From: a bacterium
Lineage (GTDB): Bacteria > Patescibacteriota > Minisyncoccia > UBA6257 > GWB1-50-10
Direction of reading: 5' to 3'
DNA: 64,000 nt
NCBI GenBank assembly: GCA_002686365.1
Contig: NZBZ01000020.1
Coordinates: forward strand, 55,484 to 119,483
Each line of letters starts with the position of its first letter. Position 1 is the first letter of the stretch. Below the pieces are notes generated by a model, which worked only from the letters and a program-made list of their open reading frames with translations, had not been told where the DNA came from and did no database searches. This document shows, in pieces, positions 12,923 through 64,000 of this stretch. The position numbers were made by a program, and so were the translations under genes.

Positions 12923-12955
12923 CAGATTGATCATGGAGCTGGTGCTGGAGGCTCC

Positions 12956-13732
12956 TTAGGTGAGCTCAGCGCGCTGGTCTCGCCGGAAGTTAACGTACTG
13001 CCTCCCTAGCGCAGTCTCGATGTAGCGCTCAACATCGTTTTCCCATCCGAGTTCTTCGGCAATCTCCGCTCCCAGCATTCGGAGAAATTTGACGAAGAAC
13101 TGAATGCTTTCAGGATCAACGAGCGAGCGCGCCCACTCCGGAAGCCATGCGTACCACTCCAGATTCCAGAACAGGAACTTAAGAATGGAGTCTCCACTCC
13201 CCATCCGGAAGTCGAACGGGTTACTTGCGCGGTAGAGAGGGACCTCACCCCCCCCATGAGCTGCCCCATCGAATATGTTGCGACACGGCCGCATGAGCCG
13301 ACTCAGCATGTCGGCAATCTGTAACATCTGCTGGAGCTCTGTTCCGAACCCCTCATGGAACCGCTCGCCGTGGTGTACTACAGCCTGAGCAATGCGGTCT
13401 TGAGCCTCGTCATCAAACGGGCTCTTCTCGAGAAGGGTGATGCAGGTGTGATACACAGCGTCTTGCCGCGCTCTCTTGCCAAGAGCTTGGAGTGCATCTT
13501 CATCAGACACAACTCCCCGCTCAATAAGAAGCCTTGCACAGCGATCTGCATTGTGCAGGAGGGCGAGCACGAGGAACTCGTATTTGTCCACCTCATAGGG
13601 TGCGAGAGGGTAGAGCTCGTGGAAGAGGTTCGCGACCGCATTCACATGAGGCCACCCGTGTCCTCCTTCGGCGTAAGCGTAGTAGGGCCCCAGGAGGGTC
13701 CTGAGATGAGATACGAACTCTTCATGCGTCAT
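12956..13732 (-). CDS. hypothetical protein, HD-domain-like; compositionally foreign (GC-rich)
   Basis: The ORF body is about 55-58% GC against about 40% around it. Start set at the internal ATG (MTHEEF...), because the 94 aa upstream in the track ORF come from AT-rich spacer. H...H, LLHNAD and VVHHG blocks suggest an HD-like fold. Confidence 0.45.
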   Translation of the reverse strand: MTHEEFVSHLRTLLGPYYAYAEGGHGWPHVNAVANLFHELYPLAPYEVDKYEFLVLALLHNADRCARLLIERGVVSDEDALQALGKRARQDAVYHTCITLLEKSPFDDEAQDRIAQAVVHHGERFHEGFGTELQQMLQIADMLSRLMRPCRNIFDGAAHGGGEVPLYRASNPFDFRMGSGDSILKFLFWNLEWYAWLPEWARSLVDPESIQFFVKFLRMLGAEIAEELGWENDVERYIETALGRQYVNFRRDQRAELT

Positions 13733-14013
13733 CGTGGATCGTCCTTCCAGTACAGCGTTATGAGACAGAAACAGTTGTGAAATGAACAGTATGCTTATAT
13801 AATGAAATGTGATAAAAGTCAAGATTAGAAAAAAGCATATAAGTGCGAAAAAGCTCAAATAAAAATAAAATACAGCATCTATAAAGCTAATAATCATGCT
13901 AAAATAGCTTATAAACAACAAAAACACAGGAAATATGCTAGTCTTACGTGTACCTTCTTCTATTGAAAATAAGCTAAAAGTTGTTATAGAATGGTACGGG
14001 AAAATATACTCCA

Positions 14014-40318: not shown

Positions 40319-41989
40319 ATGAAAAAATACATATTCACCACACTGGTCGCGAGCATACTCATAACACTCCTTGCGAGCACTTCAGTTCGAGCAGAGGAAA
40401 CAGGAAGTGACGCAAGCGCAGTCGACGGAGACTCCTCAAGTGTCACAATAGTCGATGGGGTAGAGTCAGATGATATTAGTGTCGACAAAACAGAGTCAAA
40501 CGACGTTAGTGTTGATGGAAGCTCTCCAACTAAGGATTTCATCTGTACAATGGAGTACGCTCCAGTATGCGGAAAAGACAGCAAAACATACTCAAATGAG
40601 TGCATGGCAAAAGGATCTGGAGTGGAAGTTGCGTATAAAGGGGAGTGTAAGGACATCATAGTAGTGCCTGCGCTCGACGCAACCCAACAGCCAAATCTGA
40701 TAAAGCCGCCTACTCCTAACGAGTCAGGAGCTATAACAGAATCAGTTAAAGACATAAGCATAGACAGGGACAAAGACAAACGAGCTATTAAAATAGAGAA
40801 ACGACTCTTTGTTGCTCCTATCCGAGCAGTAGAAACTACTAAAACAGAAAAAACAAACTGCGGAGTGGAAGGGAGGCTTCTCGGAGAATACAATAGACTG
40901 ATTCTCGAACTTAAGCGGGCAGAGCGGGCAAAACAAGAAGAAAAGCAGAAGGATATAATGCAGCAGATTAGGAAGCTGAAGGAAGAAATAAACAAAGAAA
41001 GAGAGGGGTGCAATATTGTCCGGCCAACTATTATAAGATCGACAACACAATCAAAGCCAGCTCCAGTAACTGCAAAGCCATCAGTAAGGCCTATAAGCGC
41101 AGAGCTGAAAAATATAGAAGTTCTCAGTCTATGCAGGCAGATTCCAGCTTTGGACAGAAAAATTGAATTTTACAAAAATGCATCTGAGGACGCATCCGAG
41201 GAAACAAGCTTCTCTGAAAAAGATATGGAGAAAATAGTGGAAGAGCTTATCGATCGGAAAGAAGCAATCAGAGAGAAGTATGAATGTAAGGAGGTAGTAG
41301 AAATACAAGATGCTGTTGCTATAAGCGCAGATGGAGATTACGAAGGCCCAATCATGAAACCTATCGTGCCAGACTCTGTAAAAGAAATTGGAAGATATTA
41401 CAGGGCGCGCATTGAAGAGGCAACTGAGACAGAAGAGGGAGAGGAGGAAGAGGCTCAAATTGAACGTCTTCGCGAGGTTCGTATAGAAGTGGACGGACTT
41501 GTAAAGAAATTCATCAAGAGCAAAAAAGAAATCAGAATGGAGGATTTGCAGGGAGTTACAGAAACAATAAACATTCAAAAAGGAAGAATTCATGCAGATG
41601 ATGTATCTGTAGAAGCAGAAGGAAAAACAATTCAGCTTTCAGAAAAGATACGCATTAAGCCAATGCGAAGGAGGGTGTTGATTCAGGAGGGGGAGTTGGA
41701 AATAGAAGCGCAGAACATCACAGTTGAAGATGGAGAGATGAAGGTTGGAAAAGGAAAGGCGCCGGTAAAAATTTCAGCAGAATGGGTAGTGCAGAATATT
41801 GAAAAGCCAATACAAAAAATTGAACTAAAAGAAGAGAATAACAAGGCAGTATATAAAATAAAAGTAAGGGAGCAGAAAAAATTCCTCGGCTTCATTCCAA
41901 TGAGAATATCAAAAACACTGAAGGTAGAGGCAGAAGAGGGTGAGCAGATCGCAGAAGAATTCCCTTGGTACTCATTCCTTTTCAGGTAA
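40319..41989 (+). CDS. secreted Kazal-domain protein with long E/K-rich coiled-coil region
   Basis: Signal peptide MKKYIFTTLVASILITLLASTSVRA. CTMEYAPVCGKDSKTYSNECMAKGSGVEVAYKGEC matches Kazal C-x(n)-Y-x-PVCG-x-DG-x-TY-x-N-x-C...C spacing. Confidence 0.7.
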   Translation: MKKYIFTTLVASILITLLASTSVRAEETGSDASAVDGDSSSVTIVDGVESDDISVDKTESNDVSVDGSSPTKDFICTMEYAPVCGKDSKTYSNECMAKGSGVEVAYKGECKDIIVVPALDATQQPNLIKPPTPNESGAITESVKDISIDRDKDKRAIKIEKRLFVAPIRAVETTKTEKTNCGVEGRLLGEYNRLILELKRAERAKQEEKQKDIMQQIRKLKEEINKEREGCNIVRPTIIRSTTQSKPAPVTAKPSVRPISAELKNIEVLSLCRQIPALDRKIEFYKNASEDASEETSFSEKDMEKIVEELIDRKEAIREKYECKEVVEIQDAVAISADGDYEGPIMKPIVPDSVKEIGRYYRARIEEATETEEGEEEEAQIERLREVRIEVDGLVKKFIKSKKEIRMEDLQGVTETINIQKGRIHADDVSVEAEGKTIQLSEKIRIKPMRRRVLIQEGELEIEAQNITVEDGEMKVGKGKAPVKISAEWVVQNIEKPIQKIELKEENNKAVYKIKVREQKKFLGFIPMRISKTLKVEAEEGEQIAEEFPWYSFLFR

Positions 41990-42002
41990 ATCCATAAATC
42001 TC

Positions 42003-42031
42003 AAACACCTCCGCATTGCCGGGGGTGTTTT
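42003..42031 (+). terminator. rho-independent terminator of the Kazal-protein gene
   Basis: AACACCtccgcattgccgggGGTGTTTTG. Confidence 0.5.
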
Positions 42032-42039
42032 GTAAGGGC

Positions 42040-42660
42040 GTATAAATTCTAAGGCGGCAACTCACGGTCACGGTGTTGCCGCCTTCGATCATGCACGAAC
42101 CGCATGATTAAACATAGGTATAGGCTGATTAGGCTGCTCGTGTCGCCTAGTTAGTCCTTGGCCTTCGTTGTGGGCGTAACGATCTCTGCCGCCTCTTTGA
42201 CGGTCGCGTCTCGACGTCTCTCGAGCACGTCTGGTCTAAGCATGAATGTCTCCCATAGGCACGGTGTGCTCCAGAGAGCCATGGAGCGTTATTGCCCATA
42301 ACTCCAAAGAACTAATTTCAGTATAACAAAATATAAAGACGTATATATAACAAGACGGCATTCTCGGTCCCGAATGCCGCCCTATCTAAAATCCGGACAC
42401 GCCGGACTATTGGCGTGTAATTGCGTGCTACCATTTAGCAGCACAGCCCTGTTCGATACCACAGAACTAATTGCAGTATAACGAAGACGTCTATAAATTC
42501 CAAGGCGGCACTGATCCACTGACCAAGATGCCGCCTTACGATTTTGGGTGTGTACAAGGTACCTGCAGAGTATCCCTAGGTCTAGGCACCGAGCGCATTA
42601 AGTGCTGCCGTTTAGCAGCGCAGCTCTGTTCGATACCACAGAACTAATTGCAGTATAACA
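42040..42660. repeat. GC-rich non-coding island with three tandem TATAAATT-promoter-like + GGCGGCA...TGCCGCC hairpin units and two about 60-nt direct repeats (GTGCTRCCRTTTAGCAGC...CCACAGAACTAATTGCAGTATAAC)
   Basis: Hairpins at 42051-42085, 42355-42382 and 42503-42537. Direct repeats at 42424-42490 and 42601-42658, with a partial copy at 42296-42327. GC is about 55% against about 40% in the flanks. Confidence 0.8.
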
Positions 42661-42706
42661 AAAATTAAAGATACTCCAAATATCCCTTGGCAAGTACTGG
42701 GGTTGA
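42661..42706. repeat. 45-bp direct repeat (copy 1) duplicating the 3' end of the downstream GT4 gene
   Basis: aaattaaagatactccaaatatcccttggcaagtactggggttgag versus ttaattaaagatactccaagtatctcttggcaagtactggggttgag at 43165-43208 (41/45 identical). Confidence 0.8.
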
Positions 42707-42802
42707 GTTGACAAAAACTGTATCTAGGTTCAAAGTAGGAACAGCTTAAGCGCGCAACAGGTATCATCCAAGTCAAAGTGCCCGCCAGCAGGAGATCCCA
42801 GC

Positions 42803-43066
42803 ATGACAGAGCCAGTAGGAAGAGGAATTTGTCTTTACGGACATCCAGCGTCCCTGCCTTCAGACAGTGAGATGGAATGGATGGTCCGAAAAGCCGGAGG
42901 ATTGGAACGCGACGAGGTGAACGCTACAACAAGGCCACGGAAGGACGGAATATGGGTCGTCGTGGCCATCATTGGTTCATCGGTGTCAGACGAAAAGTGG
43001 CAGAGAGTCGTGGATGCCGTCTCGGCGATTTCCGTGCCTCTCTCGGCACTTCGACAGGCCTCATAG
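42803..43066 (+). CDS. hypothetical 87-aa ORF inside the GC-rich island (doubtful)
   Basis: ATG ORF with no homology recognised; it lies between the two 45-bp direct repeats. Confidence 0.2.
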   Translation: MTEPVGRGICLYGHPASLPSDSEMEWMVRKAGGLERDEVNATTRPRKDGIWVVVAIIGSSVSDEKWQRVVDAVSAISVPLSALRQAS

Positions 43067-43164
43067 CCCCCGCTACGTACGCCGAGAAGAACGCTATTCT
43101 CCATCGTAACCCGTCTCAAGCTAACCAAAGCAGAGGCGGATTTTTTTCGCTCAGGTTTTCGTTA

Positions 43165-43208
43165 ATTAAAGATACTCCAAGTATCTCTTGGCAAGTACTG
43201 GGGTTGAG
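43165..43208. repeat. 45-bp direct repeat (copy 2), overlapping the last 8 codons and stop of the GT4 gene
   Basis: See copy 1; the sequence encodes ...AKRYLEYL* on the minus strand. Confidence 0.8.
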
Positions 43209-44377
43209 AAGTGCTCCTTTGTGAAAATATACCCCCTCTCTCCCAAAAGACTTCTTCTAGATTTACTTTTGGAGAGCTGGAGAATTGCTTTCTTAATATG
43301 TTCTCTGTCTCCGGGCTTTGTGCAGATGCCGCACTTTGCATGCTTGCATACTAGGTCTGCTGTGACTCCCTCCATCGCAGCAATCACGGGCCTTTTCAAA
43401 GCCATATAATCCAAAACCTTAGTAACATAGACATATTTTAAAAAGTTTTCTCTTCTAAGAGAGACAACACATATATCAGATGCAGAGATATATCCTGCAA
43501 TCTTATCTCTGGGAACAGGATCTAAAAACTCTACATTTCGAATGCCATAGGCCTTTGCCCGATTCATAATGTGTGACTTCTGCCTGCCGTCTCCGATAAA
43601 GGCAAAGTGAACATTCGCGGATTCTTCCTGAAGGCTATATGCAGCATCAAGCAGAGCATCAAAATCATATGCAGGACCATGAGAGCCGCTATAGAGTATC
43701 ACGCACTTATCATCCCACCCCAACTCACTGCGAAGCCTGAACCCATCCTGCGATTTATCTCTGATAAGATCAAACTCAACAGGATTTGGAACAACCCCGA
43801 TAATATCTTCTGGCACTCCTTTTCTTTGTACTAAAAACTGTTTAAATCCCGGAGAGTTCACAACAATCCTTCGAGCCCTCTTATACAAAAATCGTTCAAA
43901 AGAGTAGGCCATTTTAATAAGAAGTCTGTTTTTCATCCTTCCGAGCTCAATAGCCTCATCAGGAAAAAGACCCTGTACTTCGAGCACAAATGGTACACGC
44001 CTAATACGGCTCACAAAATATCCGGCAAATCCCAAAAGAATAGACGGAGAAGAGGCAATAATAACACTCGGCTTTTTTACAAGCAGTCCGGCAATAAGAG
44101 CTGAAATAAAAAACGTGCCATGTGAAAGCACGCGCCCCACAAATGTCCTATACCATATAAACGTACTCCACACCCGAAGAATCTCAGCAGCTCCATCCTT
44201 CTCCCGATAAATAAGTCCGGCTTTAGCGTATCGCTTTCCAGTCATGTAGTTAAACATGCCGGCGATAATAGTCGTATCATATCTGTCCTGTTTCCAGTAC
44301 TTTGAGAATAAATTAAAACGGGATATACCCGCCTCATTTAATCTCGTATAAAACTGATGGAAGACTAAAATTTTCAT
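43166..44377 (-). CDS. glycosyltransferase family 4 (WcaI-like)
   Basis: MKILVFHQFY... start used (the track ORF extends 26 aa further into asnB); C-terminal GT4 domain. Confidence 0.85.
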   Translation of the reverse strand: MKILVFHQFYTRLNEAGISRFNLFSKYWKQDRYDTTIIAGMFNYMTGKRYAKAGLIYREKDGAAEILRVWSTFIWYRTFVGRVLSHGTFFISALIAGLLVKKPSVIIASSPSILLGFAGYFVSRIRRVPFVLEVQGLFPDEAIELGRMKNRLLIKMAYSFERFLYKRARRIVVNSPGFKQFLVQRKGVPEDIIGVVPNPVEFDLIRDKSQDGFRLRSELGWDDKCVILYSGSHGPAYDFDALLDAAYSLQEESANVHFAFIGDGRQKSHIMNRAKAYGIRNVEFLDPVPRDKIAGYISASDICVVSLRRENFLKYVYVTKVLDYMALKRPVIAAMEGVTADLVCKHAKCGICTKPGDREHIKKAILQLSKSKSRRSLLGERGYIFTKEHFSTPVLAKRYLEYL

Positions 44378-53757: not shown

Positions 53758-53835
53758 ATTGCTCTTCCGGGGCGAGCCCCGATATACTAAAATCACTGTA
53801 GCTCGCCCGTTGAAAGCAAAATCGTTTGCTTTCAA

Positions 53836-53855
53836 CCCAACTGAGCTACGCTGGC
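53836..53855 (-). other. tRNA 5' fragment (acceptor 5' strand GCCAGCG + D-arm start TAGCTCAGTTGGG)
   Basis: Minus strand GCCAGCGTAGCTCAGTTGGG, then a perfect 11-bp hairpin instead of the rest of the D-arm. It is preceded by a leader homologous to the tRNA-Arg leader (GGCTCRCCCYGGAAGAGCARTGCC). Confidence 0.5.
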
Positions 53856-53929
53856 ACTGCTCTTCCAGGGTGAGCCTCGAAAGTAACACCTCCATACTAA
53901 TCAAGAAAACATAATAGGTAAAGCATATT

Positions 53930-54853: not shown

Positions 54854-55516
54854 ATGATTTCATTTCAGAAAGTTACCAAAACCTACAATCACAAACTTCA
54901 CGCTCTAGAAAAGGCAAGTTTTAAAATACAACCAAACGAGTTTGTCATGCTCGTAGGAAAGTCAGGAGCAGGAAAGTCCACCATACTTAAACTCTTAATC
55001 GGAGAAGAAAAGCCAACCTCAGGAAAAATCCTTTTCAACTCTCTTGAGGTAAATAAGCTGAAACCCGGAGACATGCCCGACTTGCGCCGTCAGATAGGAG
55101 TCATCTTTCAGGATTTTCGGCTTTTGGAGCAGAAAACAGCGCAGGAAAACGTCGCATTTGCGCTAGAAGTTGAAGGAAGGCCGCAAAGAGAAATAGAGGA
55201 GCTAGTTCCTCAGGTGCTCGATATGGTGGGAATAAAAGACAAGGCAAATAACTTTCCAAGAGAACTTTCAGGAGGAGAGAAGCAGAGAGTCGCAATTGCG
55301 CGAGCAATGATTAATCGTCCAAAAGTTCTTATTGCTGATGAGCCAACAGGAAATCTTGACCACCATAACTCAAGTGAGGTAATCAAGCTTCTTATAAAAA
55401 TTAATGAACTTGGAAGTACAGTAATACTTGCAACACACGACAAGGACGTTGTTGATACTCTTGATCAGAGAAGAATCACTCTTGATAAGGGAAGAATTAT
55501 AAAAGACGAAGCGTAA
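54854..55516 (+). CDS. ftsE: cell-division ABC ATPase FtsE
   Basis: LVGKSGAGKST Walker A, LSGGEKQRVAIARA signature, 220 aa. Confidence 0.9.
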   Translation: MISFQKVTKTYNHKLHALEKASFKIQPNEFVMLVGKSGAGKSTILKLLIGEEKPTSGKILFNSLEVNKLKPGDMPDLRRQIGVIFQDFRLLEQKTAQENVAFALEVEGRPQREIEELVPQVLDMVGIKDKANNFPRELSGGEKQRVAIARAMINRPKVLIADEPTGNLDHHNSSEVIKLLIKINELGSTVILATHDKDVVDTLDQRRITLDKGRIIKDEA

Positions 55517-62267: not shown

Positions 62268-62744
62268 ATGGTTTCAATAGAAAAATTCGAAGATTTAATA
62301 TGTTGGAAAAAATCAAGAGAGTTAGCAAATTTCATATATGATATAACGGACAAATCAGAGTGGAAGGATTTCGACTTGAGAAGGCAAATTCGAAGAGCAG
62401 CAACTTCTCCAATGTCAAACATTGCAGAGGGATTCGACAGAGGCACAAGAAACGAGTTTGTTGACGCGCTGTTTATCGCAAAAGGAGAAGCCGGAGAAGT
62501 AAGAAGTCAGCTATATATCGCATATGATAGAAAGTTTATAAACGAAGAAATGTTAAAAAGAGGACAAGGGCTCACCGATGAGTGCTCAAGACTGATTCAA
62601 AGCTTCACTCACAAAGTAAAAGGAGGTTCTAGGAGGGGATTACAGTTCAAGCAAGTAAAGAAGCCAGACCAAATAACAACATTGTTTAAAAAAGAATTTC
62701 CAGATGCCTATAAAGAAATGAACAAAAACAGACAGGATATATAA
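62268..62744 (+). CDS. four-helix-bundle protein (23S rRNA intervening-sequence protein family, TIGR02436/PF05635-like)
   Basis: ICWKKSRELANFIYDIT...LRRQIRRAATSPMSNIAEGFDRGTRNEFVDALFIAKGEAGEVRSQLYIA matches the family consensus (...QIRRAA.SI.SNIAEG..R.....F...L.IA.GS..E...QL). Confidence 0.8.
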   Translation: MVSIEKFEDLICWKKSRELANFIYDITDKSEWKDFDLRRQIRRAATSPMSNIAEGFDRGTRNEFVDALFIAKGEAGEVRSQLYIAYDRKFINEEMLKRGQGLTDECSRLIQSFTHKVKGGSRRGLQFKQVKKPDQITTLFKKEFPDAYKEMNKNRQDI

Positions 62745-62754
62745 TAAAAATAGC

Positions 62755-62825
62755 AAAATATCGATATATCGATATATCGATATATCGACATATGAATATG
62801 TCAAAATATCGAAATATCAACATAT
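62755..62825. repeat. ATCTCGAT-type short tandem repeat array (locus 6)
   Basis: aaaatatcgatatatcgatatatcgatatatcgacatatgaatatgtcaaaatatcgaaatatcaacatat. Confidence 0.85.
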
Positions 62826-62837
62826 AGGCATAGAAAA

Positions 62838-64000
62838 ATGAAACGCAATATACACACAAGAGTACTAATGCTAAGCGCAGCAGCACTTCTTGCTGTAGTT
62901 GGAATACAAGTGCAAGCTGCCTTCCAAGGGCCTCCTGCAGGAATAAATCCTCCAAATGGAGGAGGATTGTTTGGCCTAGATCCAAATAGAAATATAGAAT
63001 TTTTTGATATTCAGACCGAGAGCGCAAACGCAACGCCGGAAACTCAGCGTGCAGATGGCACAAAATGGGGGAGAATCTTCATGATAACCTCCAGCAGTAA
63101 CCCAGGCATAGGATTGAAAAATCTTACATCCGGAAAGAGATACATTTTAAGTGCTGAAAACGACGGCCAACTTGCTATCTGGGATGATACTGCAGGAGCA
63201 ATTAGGCTGCATATTGAAAGCAACGGCAACATAGGAATCGGGAGTACGAATACTGCGATAGATGTACTGCATGTTTTTGGAAATGCCAAGGCAGAAGAAT
63301 TTAGAGGAAGAATCTCCGCAGGATATGTAACTGGCGGCGTCGTATTCGGCTCCCTTACTACGCAAGTATCAGCCTATGCGTTTCCAACTGCAGTAGGAGT
63401 TGGAACAACTTCTGCAGGAGGAATACAGGCAGACGCATTGTATGTTGCCGGCAATGTAGGCATAGGAACAAAAGACCCTCAAGATAAGATTGATATTCGG
63501 GGGGCAGCAGGAGGAGGAATCACAATCGAAGGAACAGCGCCAGGCATCCGTTTTGGCACAGATGCTGCTCTTGGGTATGCAACCCTAGATAATCACTATT
63601 CTACAAATGCAACCCCTGGAGACATAGTACTGCGGGCAGACACTGATGATGATGTAATTTTCACATCAGGATCAAGAGCTGCGCAGCTCATAGTAAAAGG
63701 AGATACAGGAAATATAGGAATTGGCATGGCAAGTCCAGGAGCAAAGCTTGTAGTTCGAGCTAATTCAGGCATAGATGATGGTATTCATGTACAAAATAAT
63801 GGAGGCACAAATGTTGCAACACTGCAGGCAGAAAATATAGATTCAGGATTTTTAAGATTATATGACGGTCCGACACAGAATGTTTTAATGAGTGGAGAAA
63901 CTGGCGGAGTGAGTTTTATAAATTCCGGAAGAGTAGGCATAGGCACTACAGCTCCAGTAACAAAACTTGAGGTTGCAGGAGACATTGTAGGAGACACATT
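62838..64000 (+). CDS. secreted repeat protein with tail-fibre-like G-N-[IV]-G-I-G-[TS] repeats; 5' part, continues beyond the window
   Basis: The ATG at 62838 gives the signal peptide MKRNIHTRVLMLSAAALLAVVGIQVQA. The frame stays open to nt 64000, with repeated ...GNIGIGSTNTAIDVLHV..., ...GNVGIGTKDP..., ...GNIGIGMASPGAKLVV... and ...GRVGIGTTAPVTKLEV... blocks. Absent from the track because no stop is reached. Confidence 0.55.
   Translation, partial: MKRNIHTRVLMLSAAALLAVVGIQVQAAFQGPPAGINPPNGGGLFGLDPNRNIEFFDIQTESANATPETQRADGTKWGRIFMITSSSNPGIGLKNLTSGKRYILSAENDGQLAIWDDTAGAIRLHIESNGNIGIGSTNTAIDVLHVFGNAKAEEFRGRISAGYVTGGVVFGSLTTQVSAYAFPTAVGVGTTSAGGIQADALYVAGNVGIGTKDPQDKIDIRGAAGGGITIEGTAPGIRFGTDAALGYATLDNHYSTNATPGDIVLRADTDDDVIFTSGSRAAQLIVKGDTGNIGIGMASPGAKLVVRANSGIDDGIHVQNNGGTNVATLQAENIDSGFLRLYDGPTQNVLMSGETGGVSFINSGRVGIGTTAPVTKLEVAGDIVGDT

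Follow-up and report, generated by a model that had tools for sequence, protein, structure and literature searches.

A GC-rich island between convergent genes

The locus described here is a GC-rich island at positions 41990-43210 of a 64,000-nt stretch of bacterial DNA (contig NZBZ01000020.1 of assembly GCA_002686365.1, forward-strand positions 55,484 to 119,483, phylum Patescibacteriota), referred to below as the window. The island lies between two convergent genes, a Kazal-domain gene on the plus strand (40319-41989) and a family-4 glycosyltransferase gene on the minus strand (43166-44377), and the neighbouring genes form a polysaccharide-biosynthesis cluster (locus tags CL629_04580-04590). 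Judging by source names and by homologues, the organism is a marine member of the Patescibacteria. An earlier note, made from the sequence alone, had singled the island out as GC-rich, dense in repeats and hairpins and placed between convergent genes. This placement was confirmed, except that the range includes, as its right-hand 45 nt, coding sequence from the 3' end of the glycosyltransferase gene. The island looks like a mosaic in which acquired DNA and local duplications have come to lie between convergent genes of a glycan locus.

The rise in GC content is real: 0.498 in the island compared to 0.413 window-wide, with a standard deviation of 0.024 for segments of 1221 nt. Only 0.3% of the segments of this length are as GC-rich, and all of them are located either here or in a second island at ca. 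12.5-13.8 kb. The value of about 55% given earlier holds only in sub-stretches of the island (GC 0.53-0.575). Perfect hairpins with GC-rich stems of 7 bp or more are also concentrated here, with six in kb 42 vs. approximately 0.5 per kb elsewhere, a roughly 10-fold higher density. The following element forms the left edge:

42003-42033, plus strand: terminator hairpin of the Kazal-domain gene, AAACACCTCCG / CGGGGGTGTTT then TTTG, as read from the sequence

Three tandem units in the left part of the island

The left part consists of three units, U1 to U3, arranged in tandem and in the same orientation, as indicated by repeat families D1, D2 and D4 and by alignments. The motif TATAAATTCYAAGGCGGCA occurs three times (at 42041, 42342 and 42492), and each occurrence opens a GC hairpin. 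Two direct repeats of 66 nt, starting at 42420 and 42597, are 89% identical; together with a shorter, diverged third copy of the 3' end of this repeat they yield three AGAACTAATTKCAGTATAAC sites, at 42308, 42463 and 42640. Within the 64 kb, the TATAAATTCYAAGGCGGCA, 66-nt and AGAACTAATTKCAGTATAAC motifs are confined to the island, and none of 100 shuffles produced a match. The repeats and dense GC hairpins described earlier were thus borne out. The features of the units are listed below, with minimum free energies (MFE) for the two strands where these were compared.

42041-42341, minus strand: U1, 301 bp, the most diverged unit (repeat families D2 and D4, alignments); putative minus-strand RNA from ca. 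42313 to 42041
42342-42491, minus strand: U2, 150 bp, MFE -38.1 (plus) vs. -56.7 (minus); putative minus-strand RNA from ca. 42468 to 42342
42492-42662, minus strand: U3, approximately 171-178 bp, MFE -47.9 (plus) vs. -59.1 (minus); putative minus-strand RNA from ca. 42645 to 42492
42420-42485, minus strand: first copy of the 66-nt block (family D1), in U2; on the minus strand, two adjacent hairpins right after a TATACT box
42597-42662, minus strand: second copy of the 66-nt block (family D1), in U3, 89% identical to the first
42256-42328, minus strand: degenerate third copy of the block, in U1, with TAGGCAC kept and the 20-mer AGAACTAATTTCAGTATAAC (families D2 and D7, alignment)
42048-42088, no strand assigned: hairpin H1a, AAGGCGGCAAC ... 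GTTGCCGCCTT (inverted repeat I5), -24.4 (plus) / -21.9 (minus) kcal/mol, z-scores -6.7 / -5.0
42352-42383, minus strand: hairpin H1b, a 12-bp stem with two G.U pairs that form on the minus strand only, -12.6 (plus) vs. -23.3 (minus) kcal/mol, z-scores -3.5 vs. -5.7
42495-42544, minus strand: hairpin H1c, with AAAT/ATTT arms (inverted repeat I6), -17.5 (plus) vs. -24.8 (minus) kcal/mol

The same series of elements is common to all three units: an AT-rich joint, the H1 hairpin (GGCGGCA...TGCCGCC, 9-12 bp), a second hairpin, a linker of 18-20 nt and an invariant 20-mer. The third block, in U1, has the hairpin GCTCCA...TGGAGC (42268-42287) where U2 and U3 have GTGCTRC...GCAGCRC; a hairpin of another sequence at the same position points to conservation of structure rather than of sequence. 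Since no reading frame is common to U1-U3, the units are taken to be non-coding; the small open reading frames (ORFs) of U2 and U3 that start with ATG cross the repeat in different frames.

The possibility that the 66-nt repeat is the displaced end of a protein-coding gene was considered and rejected. One frame reads VLPFSS(T/A)ALFDTTELIAV followed by a stop codon, with three of four substitutions in synonymous third positions (p ~0.11); no gene of the window has such an end, and the small ORFs do not share a frame.

Strand preference and candidate transcription signals

The three hairpin units pointed out in the earlier note were folded, and the H1 hairpins proved strong (z-scores of -3.5 to -6.7, with minus-strand values down to -6.2). 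H1a is near-symmetric between the strands. The elements common to the units fold much better on the minus strand; this is the case for H1b, H1c and both 66-nt blocks, for which values of -9.6 (plus) vs. -20.9 (minus) kcal/mol were obtained in U2 (z-scores -1.8 vs. -4.5) and of -16.6 (plus) vs. -20.5 (minus) kcal/mol in U3.

These data bear on the proposal, put forward in the earlier note, of three plus-strand mini-genes, each with a TTGCAG-like -35 element, a TATAAA(TT) -10 element and, within 6-10 nt, a GC hairpin serving to stabilise or end a short transcript. TATAWAT boxes do precede all three hairpins, UUACGAUUUU follows H1c on the plus strand, U1 folds best on that strand (z-score -5.8), and the terminator at 43111-43147 shows the island to be an end point of some transcription on the plus strand. 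The promoters, however, failed a sigma-70 scan, in which no plus-strand site passed; candidate -35 elements lie at 15 nt in U3 and at 20 nt in U2, with none in U1, so that a usable one (TTGCAG, 15 nt) is present in only one of the three units. H1b is half as stable on the plus strand and the conserved blocks are likewise weakened, and a transcript would be hardly longer than the hairpin itself, or else would meet no terminator before the next unit. We therefore regard the plus-strand mini-genes as highly unlikely, and the idea of tandem small RNA genes stays alive for the left units on the other strand only.

In minus-strand orientation, TTGCAGTATAAC turns into its reverse complement GTTATACTGCAA, a -10-like TATACT that is preceded by TG in U1 and U3, and these two units carry TGTTATACT on this strand. 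U2 carries TTGGAA-17 nt-TATACT at 42503-42475, the only sigma-70-like site to emerge from the scan of the island. The TATAAATTC boxes, when read on the minus strand, are A/U-rich tails after hairpins. The promoter of the window's tRNA-Gln gene is TTGAAA-16-TATTGT and its terminator is of the classic U-tract type, indicating that this genome uses sigma-70-type signals, and by that standard the minus-strand signals of the units appear plausible, but not canonical.

The 66-nt block also contains CTGT-N8-ACAG (42449-42464 and 42626-42641), with the core spacing of an E. coli-type LexA box, just 3' of the putative minus-strand start; this is probably a mere hairpin stem.

One alternative to small RNA genes is that the units are structural or selfish intergenic DNA, either similar to repetitive extragenic palindromes and bacterial interspersed mosaic elements (REP/BIME) or composed of the decayed ends of a short, non-autonomous mobile element that has hairpins close to both ends, like miniature inverted-repeat transposable elements (MITEs) or IS200/IS605-related palindrome-associated transposable elements (PATEs), and that they are transcribed only within the 3' untranslated regions of the neighbouring genes. 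The hairpins would then act as RNA-stability or termination barriers between the convergent genes, and the segment to their right, described below, would be an unrelated insertion scar. The clustering of GC hairpins between convergent genes is as expected for such elements, the loops of H1a and H1c are related in opposite orientation, and the hairpin arms have A/T extensions on both sides, as in bidirectional terminators. The combination of conserved ends with unrelated middles fits as well, as do promoter and terminator signals that are non-canonical on either strand and a strand preference that is mixed (plus for U1, minus for U2 and U3). REP and MITE families are normally dispersed, however, and the motifs of the units were found nowhere else in the window, in 6 kb of additional contig or in any collection scanned. 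Furthermore, the units have no flanking terminal inverted repeats or target duplications, and no transposase or REP-associated tyrosine transposase (RAYT) gene was seen nearby among the called genes. We consider this a serious, though somewhat unlikely, explanation. The minus-strand small-RNA reading is itself held with moderate confidence only, passive DNA being nearly as likely.

A duplicated glycosyltransferase gene end

A pair of direct repeats overlooked in the earlier note, D3, surrounds an ORF of 87 codons (ORF87) in the right part of the island. The two 45-nt copies (42663-42707 and 43164-43208) are 96% identical, differing at two of 45 positions, and are unique within the window; their similarity breaks off sharply at both edges. 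On the minus strand both read STPVLAK(G/R)YLEYL and a stop codon, which corresponds to the last 13 codons and the stop of the glycosyltransferase. The features of this region are as follows:

42663-42707, minus strand: D3 copy 1, displaced glycosyltransferase 3' end, reading STPVLAKGYLEYL and a stop upon translation, gene body absent
43164-43208, minus strand: D3 copy 2, functional glycosyltransferase end, STPVLAKRYLEYL and a stop (stop codon at 43166-43168, plus 2 nt past the stop)
43166-44377, minus strand: glycosyltransferase, family 4, 403 aa from ATG (Pfam PF00534 / PF13692 / PF13579 / PF13439)
42708-43163, plus strand: INS, the inserted segment, 456 bp, GC 0.53, fold z-scores +0.9 / -0.3

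The exact glycosyltransferase protein is recorded in four contigs. Its closest relative (P0003, 72% identity) has the C-terminus ...SVLAKRYLEYL, and the protein encoded here ends in ...LAKRYLEYL; copy 2 is therefore the normal gene end. INS shows no similarity to U1-U3, and its RNA structure is ordinary.

The module of 501 bp bracketed by D3 (the cargo plus one repeat) probably represents the footprint of DNA that entered the glycosyltransferase gene at its 3' end by recombination and left the gene whole. In such an event, the incoming segment would have supplied or duplicated a replacement end. As no recombinase is present, the insert would be a pared-down remnant or else have been moved in trans. 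Illegitimate recombination aided by homology, in the course of a glycan-locus exchange, would have left the same scar. If the module moves by recombination within D3, the empty site is expected to consist of the glycosyltransferase body, one D3 copy and TTTTTGTTATACTGC; if it excises via D3, the circle or excision junction should read ...CAGGTTTTCGTT, D3, TTGACAAAAACTG.

The displaced end also bears on the origin of the units. The AACAAAAWWTAAAGA joints of U1/U2 and of U3/D3 are 89% identical over 36 nt, so that the repeat period extends 5-9 nt into the displaced gene end. Because the period runs into this end, local tandem duplication beside it is suggested, and the array probably grew in place next to the displaced gene end. 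A different scheme, in which U1-U3 are serial insertions bounded by decayed glycosyltransferase ends, was discarded, as the similarity between D3 and the unit ends is no better than in shuffles (p 0.54-0.98).

An independent 4082-bp contig in the ENA (ERZ5402418, 2.3x coverage) ends at window position 43162, 2 nt past D3 copy 2 and exactly at the edge of the island. This could be due to chance at 2.3x coverage or to strain heterogeneity.

A probable orphan gene within the putative insert

The 87-aa ORF was called doubtful in the earlier note, and the following features make it less so:

42790-43066, plus strand: ORF87 with its ribosome-binding site, AGGAG at 42790-42794 and 87 codons at 42803-43066
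43111-43147, plus strand: intrinsic terminator of ORF87, a CCGTCTC / GAGGCGG stem followed by A and T7, -14.0 kcal/mol, 82% of the ensemble

The AGGAG is positioned 8 nt 5' of the ATG, and the T-run after the stem exists on the plus strand only. When ORF87 was modelled by AlphaFold from the single sequence, a confident beta-alpha-beta-beta-alpha fold was obtained, with a predicted local distance difference test score (pLDDT) of 80.7 and a predicted template-modelling score (pTM) of 0.69; the antisense ORF that overlaps it, used as a control, gave a pLDDT of 50.9 and a pTM of 0.39. Taken together, the AGGAG, the T7 terminator, the pLDDT above that of the antisense control and a segment unstructured as RNA make it probable that ORF87 is a genuine orphan gene; its fold is predicted to be ferredoxin-like. 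Two other readings of the segment were ruled out, namely a structured RNA (z-scores +0.9 / -0.3) and a relative of units U1-U3 (no similarity).

No family match to ORF87 was obtained, and no homologue was found among 5.8 billion and 1.8 billion proteins, one marginal match aside. A similarity to a 66-aa repeat of an OmpA-like protein from JGI (E 4.8e-4, 28-30% identity) was too weak for use. Fold searches returned generic ferredoxin-like matches only; tblastn against plasmids gave no match, and of 24 stretches matched in a protein scan of viral contigs none was confirmed by tblastn. The insert is considered foreign because its GC content is 0.53 vs. 0.41, because ORF87 is an orphan and because a second GC-rich orphan gene is present in the locus. 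The foreign DNA suspected in the earlier note accordingly fits the right third of the island, the orphan-gene segment bracketed by the duplicated gene end.

A small orphan ORF between repeats is also reminiscent of an integron-like array of cassettes that lacks an integrase nearby, in which a repeat of ca. 110-130 nt (66-nt block, AT joint and H1) would separate the cargos V1-V3, ORF87 being the fourth cassette. Conserved blocks do alternate with unrelated cargos of 45-213 nt, and D3 copy 1 ends in GTTGAGT, in agreement with GTTRRRY. The corresponding GTTGAGA of D3 copy 2 breaks this pattern, however, and by inspection no paired RYYYAAC / GTTRRRY cores are located at the hairpin bases. In addition, the repeats around ORF87 are a host gene end and not an attC-like palindrome, and no IntI-type gene is among the genes called at ca. 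29.6-69.7 kb. Such an array is very improbable, and insertion at a gene end is the preferred reading of the ORF87 segment.

Searches for relatives

The island was compared with Rfam 15 at gathering scores, and no family was matched, RNase P, tmRNA, SRP and 6S RNA and large non-coding RNAs included; window-wide only two tRNAs were found, both elsewhere. At E<=10 a single chance-level match was returned (sX14, 17 bits vs. a gathering score of 80), and ARAGORN detected no tRNA or tmRNA in the island. The failure of the earlier note to match the island to a housekeeping RNA has therefore been borne out at both stringencies.

Searches by blastn of the island against plasmids, phages and E. coli genomes gave no match, and neither did scans of viral contigs with the DNA motifs. 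Only ten chance 20-25-mers in unrelated contexts came from a 20-mer scan of metagenomes, and a 15-mer scan of genome contigs returned chance matches only, the pattern being too short. Among 135 fetched loci, the full hairpin was present only in copies of the same contig.

The flanking genes are similarly isolated. The 90% cluster of the glycosyltransferase holds a single member sequence; its relatives comprise one at 72% identity, on a 1-kb contig, and others that are all at or below 53%, and a scan of genome contigs with the protein revealed no relative. For the Kazal protein no full-length relative was found. In the contig of the 72% relative (ENA ERZ23499079, 1066 bp), an unrelated convergent gene at 976-1066 overlaps the glycosyltransferase stop codon by 4 nt; hence the neighbourhood of this gene is not conserved even at 72% identity.

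A sharp shift in GC content, and a low-coverage contig that ends 2 nt past D3 copy 2, might also be explained by a chimeric join that brought GC-rich reads of another organism into the assembly via short repeats. A 28.7-kb ENA contig from a separate assembly, however, carries the whole island at 100% identity, and Tara and NCBI contigs of 115-120 kb include the genes. Between the D3 copies two of 45 positions differ, and the units are internally diverged, which resembles evolution rather than mis-joining. An assembly artefact is thus extremely improbable.

A proposed two-part mosaic

We tentatively favour, as the best explanation of the island, a mosaic of two parts: an insertion at a gene end that carries ORF87, and three paralogous minus-strand small RNAs. 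In the left part, these RNAs would be approximately 125-270 nt long and encoded downstream of the glycosyltransferase gene and in the same direction. Each module, read along the minus strand, would open with a -10-like TATACT, followed by a 5' domain of twin hairpins, a middle that varies between modules and a strong GC hairpin whose tail is U/A-rich. The types of event involved are all known: gene-end insertion, local tandem duplication and possible small RNAs.

Several observations weigh against this interpretation. The middles of the units cannot be aligned, and a simple tandem duplication leaves them unexplained. Whole U1 folds better on the plus strand (z-score -5.8 vs. -3.0 on the minus strand), and a hairpin found only in U1 (42112-42166), with three G.U pairs that form on the plus strand only, has -25.0 (plus) vs. 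-13.3 (minus) kcal/mol. The minus strand is favoured by four of the five informative stem substitutions and the plus strand by the remaining one, a split that is not statistically significant. The sigma-70 scan found one site vs. 1.6 expected in shuffles, and the minus-strand elements are not enriched; in U2, TATACT is preceded by CG in place of TG, and the hairpin tails are UUGGAAUUUAUA, not canonical U-tracts like those of the other terminators in this genome. As for the insertion, no integrase or transposase was found in the insert or, according to Pfam lists, among the genes called at ca. 29.6-69.7 kb. An empty site was not found either: the 72% relative, on its contig of about 1 kb, is free of the island within 85 bp and has a different convergent gene there. 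Finally, no related genome with the locus was present in the collections searched.

The right part of the mosaic can be compared to site-specific integration at gene ends. Phage 21 and e14 integrate at the 3' end of icd in E. coli, and genomic islands do so at tRNA and tmRNA genes, the gene end being regenerated. As in those cases, the 3' end of the target gene is present as direct repeats around the insert, the gene remains complete thanks to the proximal D3 copy, and the distal one is a displaced pseudo-end with a few substitutions. The locus differs from them in that its insert is only 456 bp long and lacks an integrase or excisionase, and in its repeat of 45 bp.

The left part resembles the tandem small RNAs OmrA/OmrB and PrrF1/PrrF2, which are likewise adjacent intergenic units of the same orientation, with a conserved 5' part, a 3' hairpin and a variable middle, and of a similar size (approximately 125-270 nt). 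Unlike these, the units described here have putative promoters and terminators that are non-canonical, and no homologues of them were found in the collections searched. They share with REP/BIME clusters the GC-rich imperfect palindromes between convergent genes, two of them in opposite orientation, but occur at a single locus in everything searched, measure 150-300 bp with extra conserved sequence, and have neither a GTAG-type motif nor a RAYT gene. With integron cassette arrays the island has in common that a small orphan ORF lies between repeats and that conserved blocks alternate with variable cargo; attC core sites and an integrase were not found in it, and the repeats that bound the ORF are a host gene end.

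Other known systems were considered and set aside. A diversity-generating retroelement was rejected, as the two D3 mismatches, A/G and C/T in plus-strand notation, are not adenine-specific, and no reverse transcriptase is present in the flanks. The defining features of CRISPR are absent by inspection. The periods of tandem interspaced guide RNA (TIGR) arrays are far shorter than the 150-300-bp units seen here. TIGR arrays are mentioned in the literature on Patescibacteria (PMC12045711).

If the two-part mosaic is correct, surface-glycan loci of candidate phyla would take up small foreign DNA at gene ends while the host gene is kept intact, and the left part would provide candidate small RNAs in a group in which essentially none have been characterised. 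That the three modules constitute an undescribed small RNA family, and that the right part is a recombinase-less single-gene cassette of 0.5 kb which entered the glycosyltransferase end via a 45-bp att-like repeat, is in our view unlikely. The annotation of the locus is corrected in two respects, with an ORF that is probably real and a gene end that is duplicated; as this is a single unconserved locus, its value is limited and it represents a modest lead.

Other features of the window

The second GC-rich island (12950-13735, minus strand, GC 0.57 vs. 0.41) holds a 259-aa ORF that is directed opposite to the surrounding plus-strand glycan genes and has its own U-tract terminator. It had no match in Pfam/NCBIfam, and appears to be a further orphan gene acquired by the glycan locus; the presence of a second GC-rich orphan gene suggests that foreign DNA entered this locus more than once.

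Just upstream of the tRNA-Thr gene, on the minus strand at ca. 53800-53870, GCCAGCGTAGCTCAGTTGGG... is similar to the 5' portion of a tRNA, with a hairpin after it. The element was called by neither ARAGORN nor Rfam, and may be a truncated or interrupted tRNA.

At the right end of the window (ca. 62270-64000), a gene encoding a 158-aa protein of the 23S_rRNA_IVP family is followed by that of a 1332-aa protein with a Phage_phiTE_241_C domain, which runs off the window. A four-helix bundle of the 23S_rRNA_IVP type also accompanies diversity-generating retroelements.

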